51,309 nucleotides of DNA from an uncultured Methanosarcinales archaeon (GCA_964637115.1 CAZWVL010000009.1:1-51309); one strand, 5' to 3'. Shown: positions 26,874 through 30,931, numbered from the stretch's first letter. Notes: generated by a model from the sequence alone, not told the origin. Numbers and translations: made by a program.

Positions 26874-26897
26874 TTTTTACTCACAAATTCGCATTTC

Positions 26898-26948
26898 TCG
26901 AAGATGCTTGCATCTTCGATGACCATCGGAAATCCGCGATTTCCGAGG
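26898..26948. repeat. Stacked hairpins including a TCGGAA..TTCCGA copy
   Basis: TCGAAGATGC-TT-GCATCTTCGA (26898-26919), then TCGGAAATC-CGC-GATTTCCGA (26926-26946). Confidence 0.8.
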
Positions 26949-26958
26949 TTTTACTTGT

Positions 26959-27009
26959 TTTCAAGTGCCTAACGGCCTCTCTCTTTTATGCCTTTCCACT
27001 GTTAGGCAC
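26959..27009. repeat. GTGCCTAA / TTAGGCAC site pair (left)
   Basis: TTTCAAGTGCCTAA at 26959-26972 is identical to 30627-30640; inverted TTAGGCAC at 27002-27009. Confidence 0.65.
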
Positions 27010-27163
27010 CACTTCAGCCAACTTCAATTTCTAGTGCCCAACAGTCAATCTTTTTCCCGATATTTTTTAACCGGCCTCCCAGACCGATCCGCAACACATT
27101 ATTTCATCCGCCTCAAAACACTGCGAATTATTTTTCATCTCGCGAAAACACGGTTTTCAATGG

Positions 27164-27188
27164 CCATCGGAAATCATAATTTCCGTGG
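27164..27188. repeat. TCGGAA..TTCCG palindrome family copy
   Basis: CCATCGGAAAT-CATA-ATTTCCGTGG. Confidence 0.75.
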
Positions 27189-27255
27189 TTTAAGCCCCTG
27201 CTGTTTTGAGCCAGTTTAGCAGTCTGTAAGTTGCACCTTGTATTTTAACCTTTCT

Positions 27256-27501
27256 GTCCCGTCCCAGTACCGTCCCAGTCCTAAGACGGTCCTGAGACCG
27301 TCCCAGTTCCACATATGATATAGTCGGAGTCCCAGTCCCAAGATAGTCCCAAAATAGTCTCAAAGCGTTCTTGGGAAAGTATTGGGACTGTCCTGAGACT
27401 ATCCTGAGACCGTCCCAGTCCCAGACGTTTATCGTCGATAAACCAGTCCTGGGACTGTCCTATTCCCATTCCCATTTTGGGACCGTCCTGAGACCGTCCC
27501 A
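27256..27501. repeat. Dense short-repeat (iteron-like) array
   Basis: Ten GTCCC and three GGGAC in about 250 bp; exact 16-mer TCCTGAGACCGTCCCA at 27290, 27402 and 27486. Confidence 0.9.
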
Positions 27502-27539
27502 ACCAAAAGTTTTTAAATAACGTGCCATTAACCAGCATT

Positions 27540-28214
27540 ATGTTCGATTTGTTCGGAACATCAAAAAAGCTTGCCGAGATGGACAAATCCGTCTCGCAGT
27601 CGTTTGCGAAGGTGAAGCAGGATACAGATACCCTCAACCAATGGGTTACGTATTTGCATTCCCAAAACCAGCAGCTCGTCGAGCAGAATGCTGCTTTGAA
27701 GCGCCTGACGGAAGAGCAAAAGTTTGCTTTGAACGAACTGAAAGTAACTGTGCAGCACTTGCCAAAGACGCCGCACGAGATCAAGCAGATCGTCGAGCAG
27801 TACTACAGCTTCGACCCTATTTTGCAGCGCATCAAGCACATTGAGCAGAAGATTGAGTTGTTGGAAATGAAGCGCGAAAGGAGTTCTTTCCGCCCTTTGG
27901 ATCACTCGACACCTAGCGTGAGCGCTCCGCCGGCAAGAGAAGCAGCCAGTACAGCTTTGAAGGATAAGCTGATGCGCAAGCTCGCTCGCAATAGCAAGGA
28001 CTACATCAAAAATTTAGTTCTGGGCCTCGTGCACAAGTACGGAAAAATGGGCGCTTTGCAATTGCGCGAGATGGTGGTCGACGAACAAGGCCTCTGTTCA
28101 AAATCCAGCTTTTACCGCATCCTGGAAGAGATGGAACAAGAGCATAGTTTGCAGATCATTTCTGACGGAAAACACACGGTCTATGTTGCCAGTGCAATGC
28201 ACGCAACTTCCTAA
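27540..28214 (+). CDS. Coiled-coil protein with C-terminal winged-helix-like domain
   Basis: N-terminal heptads (LNQWVTYLHSQNQQLVEQN); C-terminal YIKNLVLGLVHKYG...LREMVV...SKSSFYRILEEME. Confidence 0.75.
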   Translation: MFDLFGTSKKLAEMDKSVSQSFAKVKQDTDTLNQWVTYLHSQNQQLVEQNAALKRLTEEQKFALNELKVTVQHLPKTPHEIKQIVEQYYSFDPILQRIKHIEQKIELLEMKRERSSFRPLDHSTPSVSAPPAREAASTALKDKLMRKLARNSKDYIKNLVLGLVHKYGKMGALQLREMVVDEQGLCSKSSFYRILEEMEQEHSLQIISDGKHTVYVASAMHATS

Positions 28215-28278
28215 TTTTTTTCTCTACCAAAAACCATTTAAACCACTTCCCACTCCAAAAAACCATCGACCAAATGGG

Positions 28279-28821
28279 GTGGTAGAAATTCACGACAAGC
28301 AAGAGGTATTGCTGTCGAGTGATGCACCAGTATTACGCCAGCAGATCTCGACCGTGCTTGAGTGCATGCGCGAGGAGCTTGATGACCACAGATTGGCCAT
28401 CAACGAGAACACAGACGAATTAGTTGCTGCAAGTGAGTTCACGAATGAACTCGGCCGGCGTCTGGATAAGCTCACCGAGCGTGTAGACGAGCTAACTTTA
28501 CTCATTAAGGGGCAGAAAGAGCAGAAGAGCTTTGAAGTTAAGCCTTTGAGCAATAGGGAGAAGGAAGTCTTCCATGCGCTTTACGTCTTGACTGAGAGCC
28601 AGCCTTACGCGTCCTACGAGCAGGTTGCCAGAAAGACGTGTTTGACTCGGGGCATTGTGATGGACACTTTGACGAGCATAGCGTTGAAAGGCGTTCCCAT
28701 TCTCAAGAAGCTTGACGGCACAACTGTTTTCATGAAGCTTGACTCGGATTTCCGTCAGCTGCAGGCAAAACAGAACATCATTGGCCTGAATTCTCTTCTG
28801 ACGGCCTGGCTTCCTCGCTAG
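28279..28821 (+). CDS. Coiled-coil protein with C-terminal winged-helix-like domain
   Basis: EELDDHRLAINENTDEL...LDKLTERVDEL coiled coil; LSNREKEVF...SYEQVARK...LTSIALKGVPI HTH. Start codon uncertain. Confidence 0.75.
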   Translation: MVEIHDKQEVLLSSDAPVLRQQISTVLECMREELDDHRLAINENTDELVAASEFTNELGRRLDKLTERVDELTLLIKGQKEQKSFEVKPLSNREKEVFHALYVLTESQPYASYEQVARKTCLTRGIVMDTLTSIALKGVPILKKLDGTTVFMKLDSDFRQLQAKQNIIGLNSLLTAWLPR

Positions 28822-29278
28822 AACTTCTCAATTTTTCTTTTTTTATCTCATTCTGCAAATGCTCGATAATCCTGAAGCTGCTGTCCATGTGAGCTTTTAG
28901 GGTTGCTTCTGCTTTCCTGAATGCTCCTTCCAGATTCGTGCCATTTAGCTCATACCCAATCACGACCTTGCCTCCGGAGACAAAACTTGTTTTCTTGAGA
29001 ATCTGGAGGTCTAAAAATCTGTGAAGATAATCGTACATCGTCTGGCGTTTAATTCCTGCATAAAGCGCCATTTCTTCGACGGGCAGGACTGCCGCTTCCG
29101 GCTTTTTTTCTCTGTTTGCTTCTTTCTTGCGCTCGTATAGCTGCAAAATCAGTTTGTGCAGCTGTGCATTGCCGTCTTTTTTTCTTGGCAGGAGTCCAAA
29201 TCTGGCCAGCAAAACTTTTGCCAGCTCTTCAACTTCGTGGTTTACAGGTTCCGCGTTGTCGAGCAAAAATTCCATCAT
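28778..29278 (-). CDS. Winged-helix DNA-binding-like protein
   Basis: VEEMALYAGIKRQTMYDYLHRFLDLQILKK...GYEL; AAGGTG SD before ATG 29278; overlaps the convergent gene by 44 nt. Confidence 0.75.
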   Translation of the reverse strand: MMEFLLDNAEPVNHEVEELAKVLLARFGLLPRKKDGNAQLHKLILQLYERKKEANREKKPEAAVLPVEEMALYAGIKRQTMYDYLHRFLDLQILKKTSFVSGGKVVIGYELNGTNLEGAFRKAEATLKAHMDSSFRIIEHLQNEIKKEKLRSSSEEARPSEENSGQ

Positions 29279-29363
29279 GCACCTTTTTTCCAATTGTTGA
29301 AAATTTGTCTGCTTAAAAATTTTCCGATGATGCCTGTCCAGTGTCCAGTGAAACCCCGACATG

Positions 29364-29413
29364 TCGGAAACCAAAGGTTTCCGAGCACCATCGGAATTCA
29401 AAGAATTCCGAGG
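29364..29413. repeat. Two tandem TCGGAA..TTCCGA palindromes
   Basis: TCGGAAACC-AAA-GGTTTCCGA (29364-29384) and TCGGAATTC-AAA-GAATTCCGA (29391-29411). Confidence 0.85.
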
Positions 29414-29797
29414 TCTAAAACATTTGAGAATTACTTAAAACTTTTAATCAAAACTTTTTCAAAGCAAAAATTTTTGTGGAAAAAATGCCGATTTCTGCGT
29501 TAAACGGTCCAGGACAAGACTTTTTCAAAAAAACGTATTCTGACCTTTCCAATGGGCTAAAAATTTGCCTTGCTGCCAAAGAATTCGCAAAAAATCCCGA
29601 CACATTTGGTCAACCCATTCCAAAACTGCCAACCACCAAACCAAAACTTTCACCGATAATCCCGACTGGGCCGGCATTTTTCCTGCCTTTCTCCCATTTT
29701 TCCGACAAATGAGGTCAAGGTACCCCTGCTCTAACCCCTTGGTTCCACGACAAAAGATGCAAACTCTTGCACGAATTAGCAAATTCTGGCAAAATCC

Positions 29798-30274
29798 CTA
29801 ACAAGTTTGGGGATCTGGTGTTAGTGTTCTCTGGCGTGCTTTTTCGAGGATAGATTTTATCTCTTTGGCTGCTCTTTCAACGAGCTCTCCATCGCCTTCG
29901 ATTTCGACTGAAATTTGACCATTCGCGATCTGTTTGTGATAGTCGCCTTTTGGTTGAAGTCCTCGAACGGATTTCTGTCCGGTTGCGTAGAACACGAGTA
30001 TGTGGACAGGATTTTTTGCTGATACATCTCCAATTTGTGATGCTGCTTCTTCGTCTAGATGACCGTCATACACTAAAGCTGACGAGTGTGCGGTTTGTCC
30101 AGACCCTTGCTTGTACACTCTGATGCCATCAAGCGAATCAGCGAGTTCTTTTCCGTTTATGAAAAGATTGTATTCGACTGGTTTAAGTCCTAGTCGTTTT
30201 GCCTCATCTTCTAGCCGTTTTAGTCGTGCTAGGTCTGGATTTCTAGGTGTGTATTCGTTGGTCATTGTCTTCAT
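29798..30274 (-). CDS. Hypothetical protein
   Basis: 158-aa ORF with alpha/beta pattern; no motif recognised. Confidence 0.65.
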   Translation of the reverse strand: MKTMTNEYTPRNPDLARLKRLEDEAKRLGLKPVEYNLFINGKELADSLDGIRVYKQGSGQTAHSSALVYDGHLDEEAASQIGDVSAKNPVHILVFYATGQKSVRGLQPKGDYHKQIANGQISVEIEGDGELVERAAKEIKSILEKARQRTLTPDPQTC

Positions 30275-30300
30275 TCTTTTGGCGCAAACCGGTGTTATTT

Positions 30301-30540
30301 AAAGTTTACTCTTGTCGTAGATATTTTATCGATTTTTAGATTTTTTAACTCCCGTTATGTAGTGATAGAAGTTTAAATAAGATATTCTCTTGAAAATATT
30401 CTTTACAACTTATTCTTTGAAGAACATTCTTTTTCAAAATAAACTATGTAAATTCCATTTAACAAAATATTCTTTCAAAAATATATTTTCCAGTATTGTT
30501 AAACCCTCATTTTTTATCAAAATTTATGAGTGAAAAGTGA
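30301..30540. other. AT-rich segment with 14-bp periodic repeats (DUE-like)
   Basis: 54 G+C in 240 nt by hand count (about 22%); (T/C)ATTCT at 30383, 30397, 30411, 30425 and 30468. Confidence 0.7.
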
Positions 30541-30606
30541 GGATTGGGTGAGAACTGGTCAGAAGTGGCTCATTGCAAGGCGACTAACACTCATTTTGAA
30601 ATTCTC

Positions 30607-30698
30607 GTGCCTAATTATAGTACTAATTTCAAGTGCCTAATTCTTTGCCACTTTTTGCGCAAATCTGCGACAAAAACAAAAATTTACGTTTAGGCACT
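30607..30698. repeat. GTGCCTAA / TTAGGCAC site cluster (right)
   Basis: GTGCCTAA at 30607 and 30633; inverted TTAGGCAC at 30690. Confidence 0.65.
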
Positions 30699-30931
30699 AT
30701 CTGGTTTTGATGTTTTTCGGCAGGTTGCCAGCCAGAAAGATGGCAGCAAAGGACGGTACGTGAGTAAGAGGCAGACTCAGAAAAGTGAGTCTTCGCAGAA
30801 AATCCCGAGCTAGCATGGAAAATAGGCATTGTAAGGCTTGGAAACTCGCACTAAACTGTGGTTCTTGCTAGTTTCCACGATTGAGTAGTGGTGATAAATC
30901 CTTTTAAATACGGACACAAGATAAAAAATGA

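Follow-up and report, generated by a model that had tools for sequence, protein, structure and literature searches.

A conserved three-gene locus of Woesearchaeales chromosomes is probably a dedicated protein-DNA platform and not the main replication origin

We analysed a window of 51,309 nucleotides (nt) that makes up an entire contig (C9) of a genome labelled as that of an uncultured Methanosarcinales archaeon (GCA_964637115.1 CAZWVL010000009.1:1-51309; 27 contigs, 1.27 Mb; hereafter G000), and within it the region 26874-30931, which an earlier note had put forward as a non-canonical replication origin or segregation locus. The names of the closest database homologues put the genome within Candidatus Woesearchaeota. 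The region encodes three conserved predicted DNA-binding proteins, A, B, and C, between two mirror-oriented non-coding arms that carry five families of short boxes. Probably this module is not the main replication origin, but a conserved and dedicated protein-DNA platform: the earlier suggestion of a special locus that uses proteins and sites not yet described found support, and that of an origin did not. As for its role, we favour, at slightly less than even confidence, a nucleoprotein platform, lineage-specific and present once per Woesearchaeales chromosome, that acts as a centromere-like or chromosome-organising landmark.

The locus lies between rsmE on its left (26166-26873, minus strand, RsmE family) and a gene for a cysteine-rich protein on its right (30932-31753, 273 amino acids (aa), three six-cysteine repeats), and it contains the three winged-helix genes together with one variable orphan, D. 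Its spacers S1 (26874-27539, 666 nt), S2 (29279-29797, 519 nt), and S3 (30275-30931, 657 nt) each stand at or above roughly the 98th percentile of the ~1,300 intergenic gaps of the genome (median 32 nt, 99th percentile 590 nt); the gap of 64 nt between A and B is also non-coding. The description of the region as a gene-poor block of 4 kb does not hold strictly, as there are four genes in it. About 53% of the region is coding, against about 92.5% genome-wide, by a crude call of open reading frames (ORFs) that also set two unconserved ORFs of 84-85 aa within S1 and S2. An inverted repeat of 21 nt has its arms at 26869 and 30521, an identical 14-mer recurs at 26959 and 30627 in the arms of the locus, and the G+C content is host-like.

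The short boxes of the locus are markedly enriched in it. Counted against the expectation from the rest of the 1.27-Mb genome, the P box GTGCCTAA occurs six times (0.05 expected, P = 2e-11), GTCCCA 12 times (0.71 expected, P = 2e-11), and GTCCTGAGAC three times (0.01 expected, P = 5e-8); three copies were also found of the D-box word AATCCCGA (0.08 expected, P = 7e-5) and of AAAGTGAG (0.14 expected, P = 4e-4). Since arithmetic on the counts puts the same words elsewhere in the genome at no more than the frequency predicted by base composition, we regard the boxes as private to the locus. The densest group, the G array (27250-27505, both strands), has ~22 cores of the GTCCCA, GTCCTG, or TTCCCA type (18 forward and 4 reverse), including the three copies of GTCCTGAGAC, on a lattice of 5.5/11 nt. 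Neighbouring cores are 5, 6, 11, 22, or 44 nt apart in 14 of 17 cases, and Tandem Repeats Finder recovered four 11-nt arrays; a Rayleigh test at a single 11-nt period was not significant, the boxes sitting in two phases 5-6 nt apart. In a scan of the genome no window other than the G array held nine or more such hexamers per 300 nt, and the iteron-like array noticed before is both present and unique in the genome. It encloses the palindrome TTTATCGTCGATAAA (27428-27442) and ends just upstream of a TATA-like box, TTTTTAAATA (27510-27519, plus strand), ~25 nt before the ATG of gene A. This box belongs to a column block conserved in congeners and would be the promoter element of A.

The remaining boxes are laid out in mirror fashion. 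The left arm has H boxes, CTCAC-N6-CTCAC (26869-26884, that is GTGAG-N6-GTGAG on the minus strand), the first of which overlaps the GTG start codon of rsmE, and P boxes over 26965-27041, with GTGCCTAA at 26965, the convergent TTAGGCAC at 27002, and GTGCCCAA at 27034. Upstream of gene C, two D boxes of the AAAATCCCGAC type (29590-29666, plus strand) read AAAAATCCCGACA at 29590 and GATAATCCCGAC at 29655. The right arm (30528-30808, plus strand) begins with GAGTGAAAAGTGAGGATTGGGTGAG (30528-30552) and continues with GTGCCTAA at 30607 and 30633, the convergent TTAGGCAC at 30690, AAAAGTGAG at 30781, and a third D box (30799-30808). The matching site pairs reported at both ends are therefore real: GTGCCTAA lies at 26965 on the left and at 30607 and 30633 on the right, with its reverse complement at 27002 and 30690. 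The H boxes of the left arm face left. Those of the right arm face right, follow TATA-like tracts by ~25-45 nt, and are directly preceded by an A+T-rich block (30290-30520). The reported segment of ~22% GC with periodic repeats was recovered in this block, with 22% GC at 30300-30499 and a 14-nt repeat that is weak. The plus strand had also been read by eye as changing from C-rich to G-rich in the direction expected at an origin. The local change exists (GC skew of -0.30 to -0.40 at 26900-27200 and 29500-29800, and of +0.25 at 30700-30900), but there is no switch at the level of replichores, and the change arises because the boxes are mirror-oriented (CTCAC on the left, GTGAG on the right).

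Gene A (27540-28214, plus strand) encodes a protein of 224 aa. In the alignment it has a conserved motif at the N-terminus, then a long coiled coil and a disordered linker, and at the C-terminus a winged helix whose recognition helix, CSKSSFYR, is invariant. Its AlphaFold2 model, with a predicted local distance difference test score (pLDDT) of 79.8, has a 70-residue helix, more helices, the disordered linker, and the C-terminal winged helix. Gene B (28279-28821, plus strand, 180 aa) has a GTG start that is kept in relatives; the alignment of its product gives a coiled coil with an invariant ELDDH..INENT motif and then a C-terminal helix-turn-helix (HTH) or winged-helix-like domain. Gene C (28778-29278, minus strand) encodes 166 aa, the start of a longer ORF being wrong given homologues of ~165 aa. 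No protein of the module is better conserved than its product: 58 columns are invariant among 32 sequences, and there are at least 410 homologues, all of them unnamed Woesearchaeota proteins of ~165 aa. In the AlphaFold2 model (pLDDT 89.9), a winged helix leads into a C-terminal helix of 40 residues. The claim of three winged HTH genes is thus borne out by AlphaFold2 for A and C, but for B it comes from a sequence pattern and weak profile matches to GerE, MntR, and AdcR (E = 0.003-0.03). The genes B and C are convergent and their 3' ends overlap by 44 nt (28778-28821), an overlap of ~30-38 nt being kept in relatives; antisense transcription could couple the expression of both.

None of the four proteins A-D matched a Pfam or NCBIfam family at E <= 0.1, coiled-coil noise apart, and sequence-profile searches of the PDB gave nothing significant. 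Fold searches with Foldseek and VIA for A and C returned generic winged-helix regulators alone, such as ArsR/SmtB, MarR, Lrs14/AbfR2, TFE-alpha, and TrmBL2, as well as TubR, weakly, for A. Best for C were generic MarR/ArsR-type regulators and TrmBL2 at Z ~8 (TrmBL2 7.9 over 114 residues; AbfR2 with a Foldseek E = 2e-3), a strength which in these model comparisons suggests a shared common fold, not family membership. In its model C resembles TrmB/TrmBL2 and Lrs14-type proteins by having a winged helix and then a long, presumably dimerising helix, but those proteins bind many sites or coat DNA, whereas the presumed boxes of C occur at this locus only. Look-alikes in the ESM Atlas, which are leads only, fall in unnamed DPANN clusters for A and in ArsR-type HTH clusters for C. 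We also considered that A and B might be paralogues; an hhalign probability of only 9% leaves them not detectably related.

The module is conserved in its genes, in its order, and in its boxes. Protein A has one match per genome in 44 of 61 relatives, and a profile finds it in 157 of the 251 genomes from the phylum. Some 50 of these matches are strong and full-length, almost all of them in the same order, the matches in other orders being weaker and partial (both tallies include the unpublished genomes G010, G023, and G277, on which nothing else here depends). The gene order, which runs from UppS, an unknown gene, RpoL, and sometimes RsmE through S1, A, B, convergent C, and a long spacer to a PAC2-family gene, was found in 19 of the 20 neighbourhoods fetched; gene C is missing in four loci, all from other families, the PAC2 gene occurs in either orientation, and rsmE is missing in some relatives. 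Each genome has one copy of the module. In all 19 relatives with the module, the winged-helix orthologues are flanked by long repeat-rich spacers, whose absence the earlier note would have taken as refuting its idea. Recurrence of the boxes, measured by k-mer counts over the spacers of relatives, is high: AGTCCCAG arrays occur in 14/14 S1 spacers, (T)AGTGCCTAA in 13/14 S1 and 13/15 right-hand spacers, the convergent P pair in 13/14 S1 spacers, AAAGTGAG(AG), of the H type, in 15/15 relatives, AAAATCCCGAC, of the D type, in 14/15, and the TTTATCGTCGATAAA palindrome in 8/14, and every relative examined has a G array. From the left towards gene A, the order is leftward H boxes, convergent P pair, and a G array ending at the TATA-like box of A; after A, B, and C come D boxes, the A+T-rich block, a rightward H box, TTAGGCACTAT, and a second rightward H box. 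This mirror-like arrangement is shared within the family and extends to other families of the order. The spacings between boxes vary among relatives (23-155 nt from H to P), which fits sites for proteins and not RNA. Within the genus, nucleotide identity is 0.75 in the G array, 0.59 at third codon positions in the winged HTH region of gene A, and 0.37 in the neighbouring spacer. This comparison of sequences points to purifying selection acting on the box arrays as DNA.

Two apparent departures from this pattern were rejected. The module seemed absent from G033 (97% complete, no match to A or C), but there one contig stops within the left arm, 1 kb beyond rpoL, and another starts with PAC2, which makes the absence an assembly gap. 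Assemblies break in or beside the module at the end of G033:C2 and in G001:C45, G008:C205, G002:C22, G013:C14, and G036:C12; reports of gene absence therefore under-count the module. A second locus with TCCTGAGAC pairs, on contig C12 of G000, was dismissed since the pairs fall within a long ORF and are chance matches.

The case against a replication origin begins with a better candidate elsewhere in the genome. The top-scoring orc1 (430 bits) is found at C4:114204 and another homologue on C10; directly upstream of the C4 gene are TTGCATAGGAAATAGGGGAGGG on the minus strand at C4:113881, a stretch of almost pure A/T, and GTTCCATACGAAACCAAGGGG on the plus strand at C4:114036. By its sequence this site looks like a textbook origin, in which a DNA unwinding element (DUE) lies between a minus-strand and a plus-strand origin recognition box (ORB). 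ORB and mini-ORB were taken as TTCCA-N3-GAAA, the G-string being optional, after the model of this orc1-adjacent site; within the C4 origin (C4:113860-114110) the plus-strand ORB has the G-string, and a mini-ORB stands at ~114095. In our region, the ORB pattern TTCCANNNGAAA had no match over 26500-31200, and the ORB 14-mer of the genome itself had none at up to 3 mismatches. The statement that the locus lacks cdc6/orc1 and a canonical ORB was accurate, the orc1 homologues being on C4 and C10.

Strand skew, proposed as the test of an origin, gave a clear answer in one genome. The raw cumulative skew is uninformative because gene strand dominates it, and it was replaced by a strand-corrected skew, in which third-position skews of plus- and minus-strand genes are compared within one stretch. 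In G000, one strand of every contig proved to be uniformly A-rich and slightly rich in C at third codon positions, whichever way the genes point (|rAT| 0.15-0.4), and the sign is constant within each contig; left and right of the module, rAT takes values of -0.31 and -0.26, and rGC is +0.11 in both flanks. No switch occurs at the orc1 site of C4 either, and a stretch of 400 kb (C1:1-400000) in G018, from the same family, has none at the module or at orc1. In the family of the window, then, skew locates no origin, and the module is merely not a switch point there. The sole genome where the skew could be read is G052, a closed chromosome of 1,301,350 bp from another family of the order, in which rAT is positive around the whole circle and rGC is bipolar. 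Its cumulative strand-corrected skew at third positions (GC3) has a minimum at 792.5 kb and a maximum at 146 kb, with a range of 61 against at most 16.5 in 1,000 permutations. The minimum is 28 kb from orc1 (764 kb), and the module, at 436.5 kb, sits in the middle of a monotonic arm with no inflection (rGC -0.117 on the left and -0.107 on the right). The raw AT skew of the whole G052 genome is +0.09, meaning that Chargaff's second rule fails at genome scale and that only the GC3 skew is bipolar. Module and orc1 are 183 kb apart in G158, 189 kb in G084, 198 kb in G200, 286 kb in G018, 328 kb in G052, and 360 kb in G214, which amounts to 18-36% of genome size in these six relatives with both on one contig. 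The proposed origin is thus not supported, as far as this test reaches: an ORB/DUE/ORB site stands beside orc1 on C4, the locus has neither ORB nor skew switch, and the skew minimum of G052 is near orc1 and not near the module. A false origin candidate is removed, and given the unipolar strand skew of the family, skew alone is unusable for calling origins there.

A narrower version, in which the locus is a secondary or Orc1-independent origin where a winged-helix initiator on iterons melts the adjacent A+T-rich block, draws on analogy and seems to us unlikely. A phased iteron-like array does adjoin a winged-helix gene, and the A+T-rich block is conserved: flanked by inverted H boxes in relatives, its equivalent has 16-25% GC over 150-250 nt before the right-arm H box in six family-level relatives. 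The skew is silent at the orc1 origin as well and so cannot positively identify any origin in the family. The WhiP-dependent oriC3 of Sulfolobus is a precedent for a winged-helix initiator without Orc1 (PMC3607249), and it shares with Orc1/Cdc6 origins and with our locus the inverted protein-binding boxes, putative ones at our locus, around an A+T-rich block and the adjacent winged-helix genes. Unlike those origins, the locus lacks ORB boxes, an initiator of the AAA+ or Cdt1-like type, and a switch in skew. The version has also to contend with the complete ORB/DUE/ORB site beside orc1, with the lack of any skew change at the module in G000, G018, and G052 and the GC3 minimum of the latter near orc1, with the absence of Rep_3, Cdt1, or AAA+ signatures in A-D, and with the 3 kb that separate the G array from the A+T-rich block. 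The iteron-type plasmid replicon is likewise similar in having phased direct repeats next to a gene, but the Rep_3/RepA type of winged-helix Rep protein was not found (Pfam/NCBIfam, E <= 0.1).

The landmark that we favour could work as follows. 1) Each protein would bind a box family of its own. The phased GTCCCA array, which stops at the TATA box of A, would be the target of A, of B, or of both; C would recognise the CCCGAC boxes upstream of its gene, and the GTGAG and GTGCCTAA boxes would fall to B or C. 2) Through the coiled coils of A and B and the long helix at the C-terminus of C, the proteins would oligomerise and bridge the sites into one large complex. 3) The complex would also autoregulate the genes A, B, and C. 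4) Its task would be the pairing, anchoring, or positioning of a single site on the chromosome, where it might also let SMC enter; SMC is encoded on contig C19, and no ParB is involved. Its output must be local or positional, because the genome has no other sites, and it would be neither the switch of a regulon nor a replication origin.

Several observations weigh against this landmark. First, no nucleoside triphosphatase (NTPase) motor was found among the conserved neighbours UppS, the unknown gene, RpoL, RsmE, A, B, C, and PAC2, and the sole ParA/MinD-like match in the genome is weak (29.8 bits) and lies on contig C18. Second, the binding of boxes by A, B, and C is a prediction from sequence. 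Third, an array beside a promoter equally resembles a strongly cooperative autoregulatory operator. Fourth, the association of boxes with gene C amounts to a single phylogenetic split and is weak evidence: D boxes on the C side occur in 14 of the 15 loci with gene C and in 0/4 without it, and D plus P boxes in 14/15 and in essentially none of the four. Fifth, bacterial parS sites cluster at the origin, unlike the module, which is ~18-36% of the chromosome away from orc1. Sixth, an A+T-rich block between inverted boxes has the look of an origin.

The operator-like look leads to a purely regulatory cassette, in which A, B, and C would be transcription factors acting only on themselves and on the genes that flank the arms (rsmE on the left, and the variable orphan, the cysteine-rich protein, or PAC2 on the right), with the arrays giving cooperative, switch-like control. 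We hold this possible, both for the cassette and for these targets, at a confidence well short of even. It accounts well for the G array that stops at the TATA-like box of A, the D boxes upstream of C, the left H box over the rsmE start codon, where a congener has a TATA-like box ~27 nt upstream, the right-arm H boxes ~25-45 nt past TATA-like tracts, and fold matches that are all to transcription factors. It accounts less well for ~2 kb of conserved boxes, which far exceed the needs of self-regulation, and for arms that are kept despite changes in the flanks: PAC2 flips, rsmE is sometimes missing, and at one locus (L035) PAC2 turns its 3' end towards the last H box. Nor is any box enriched elsewhere in the genome, hence there is no regulon.

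Among known systems, the parC/ParR pair of plasmid R1 (type II) and the tubC/TubR pair of Bacillus plasmids (type III) are centromeres with small autoregulatory adaptors, TubR being itself a winged-helix protein. By analogy, they share with our locus the helically phased short repeats directly upstream of an operon for the presumed binder, sites exclusive to one locus, a small dimeric DNA-binding protein, and an overlap with the promoter that implies autoregulation. They differ from it in many ways: the locus is chromosomal and archaeal, has no ParM, TubZ, or ParA motor gene nearby, combines three binders with five box families over 4 kb, two mirrored arms, and an A+T-rich block, and shows no detectable sequence homology to them. 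More broadly, an array with adjacent winged-helix genes recalls the partition cassettes (ParABS, ParMRC, TubZRC) and SegAB, but the motor NTPase is absent from the conserved neighbours. The SegAB system of Sulfolobales needs the ParA-type ATPase SegA from the same operon (PMC8682754, PMC12139799); no SegA-type ATPase is found at our locus, and SegB, set apart here by its description, is not a coiled-coil winged-helix protein of the A-C type. The closest functional analogues, judged by these likenesses, appear to be centromere-like sites with autoregulatory adaptors, namely parC/ParR, tubC/TubR, and archaeal SegB sites.

The same architecture could be the fossil of an integrated plasmid or virus, that is, a partition or replication cassette between inverted repeats that was fixed in an ancestor and is perhaps neutral or domesticated. 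The inverted arms bracket the genes and share the 14-mer of 26959 and 30627, the DNA-binding genes are small orphans, and a variable passenger, D, sits inside. We find such a descent improbable in view of the same chromosomal site across an order, the strong purifying selection on C and the array, the lack of an integrase or transposase gene at the locus, and a G+C content like that of the host. No relatives of the module appeared in 2.9 million viral contigs, plasmid collections not being searched. A reading in terms of RNA, in which the spacers encode non-coding RNAs and the boxes are promoter or processing signals, is more doubtful still, and we give it very little weight. In its favour, a genome that is 92.5% coding would not usually have spacers of 500-650 nt, and TATA-like tracts precede the H boxes. 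A search of Rfam, on the other hand, gave no family even at E <= 1, save one match with E = 0.68 far below the gathering score, and no tRNAs were found; the boxes occur in both orientations, the spacing of the same pair ranges over 23-155 nt, and helical phasing points to recognition at the level of DNA. A scan for sigma-70 promoters is inapplicable to archaea.

If the landmark is centromere-like, it might go further and be of a kind undescribed in any domain: a motor-less complex of three winged-helix/coiled-coil proteins on exclusive arrays, in a lineage without ParB and SegAB. This we put forward only tentatively. Full-text searches of the literature found no description of the locus. A paper on 208 complete Nanobdellota genomes (bioRxiv 10.64898/2026.05.13.725050) rotates them to ORC1/Cdc6 and mentions neither skew nor the module. 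How chromosomes are organised and segregated in archaea without SegAB or ParABS is an unsolved question, and because DPANN are uncultured, conserved sequence landmarks are among the few handles on it. With three proteins and five short DNA motifs, the locus offers concrete material for tests in vitro.

The spacers also contain a dispersed repeat that stands apart from the boxes. This R element of ~50 nt forms two hairpins, and the genome contains at least 13 copies, most of them between genes; hairpin 2 is TCGGAAAT-N5-ATTTCCGA, often followed by GGTTTT, and the stem of hairpin 1 is variable, with compensatory changes. Three copies lie in the locus, all on the plus strand: at 26900-26953 (nhmmer E = 5e-13), absent at the orthologous site in four congeners; at 27145-27192 (E = 6e-9), absent in the closest congener, G006; and at 29364-29417 (E = 5e-11), in the spacer upstream of C, where two dyads lie side by side. 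Others were seen on contig C9 (19844-19892 and 49985-50026) and at C2:64241, C3:10608, C3:40575, C8:5277, C8:45712, C26:2575, and C1:22920. R-type dyads are essentially limited to this genome among the loci compared, and copies are gained and lost between congeners. They are lineage-specific insertions into the spacers of an element like miniature inverted-repeat transposable elements (MITEs) or repetitive extragenic palindromes (REPs), outside the conserved module. The stacked palindromes of the earlier note are therefore real dyads, but they are copies of a dispersed element, and the two in S1 are missing at the sites of four congeners and of one, respectively.

Variable passengers occupy the space between the upstream region of C and the right arm or PAC2, and here they are gene D and the gene for the cysteine-rich protein. 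Gene D (29798-30274, minus strand) encodes an orphan of 158 aa; of the 19 relatives only two have it (38-41% identity). The cysteine-rich gene, likewise variable, is present in six relatives, and its product evolves fast, with 48-70% identity within the genus.

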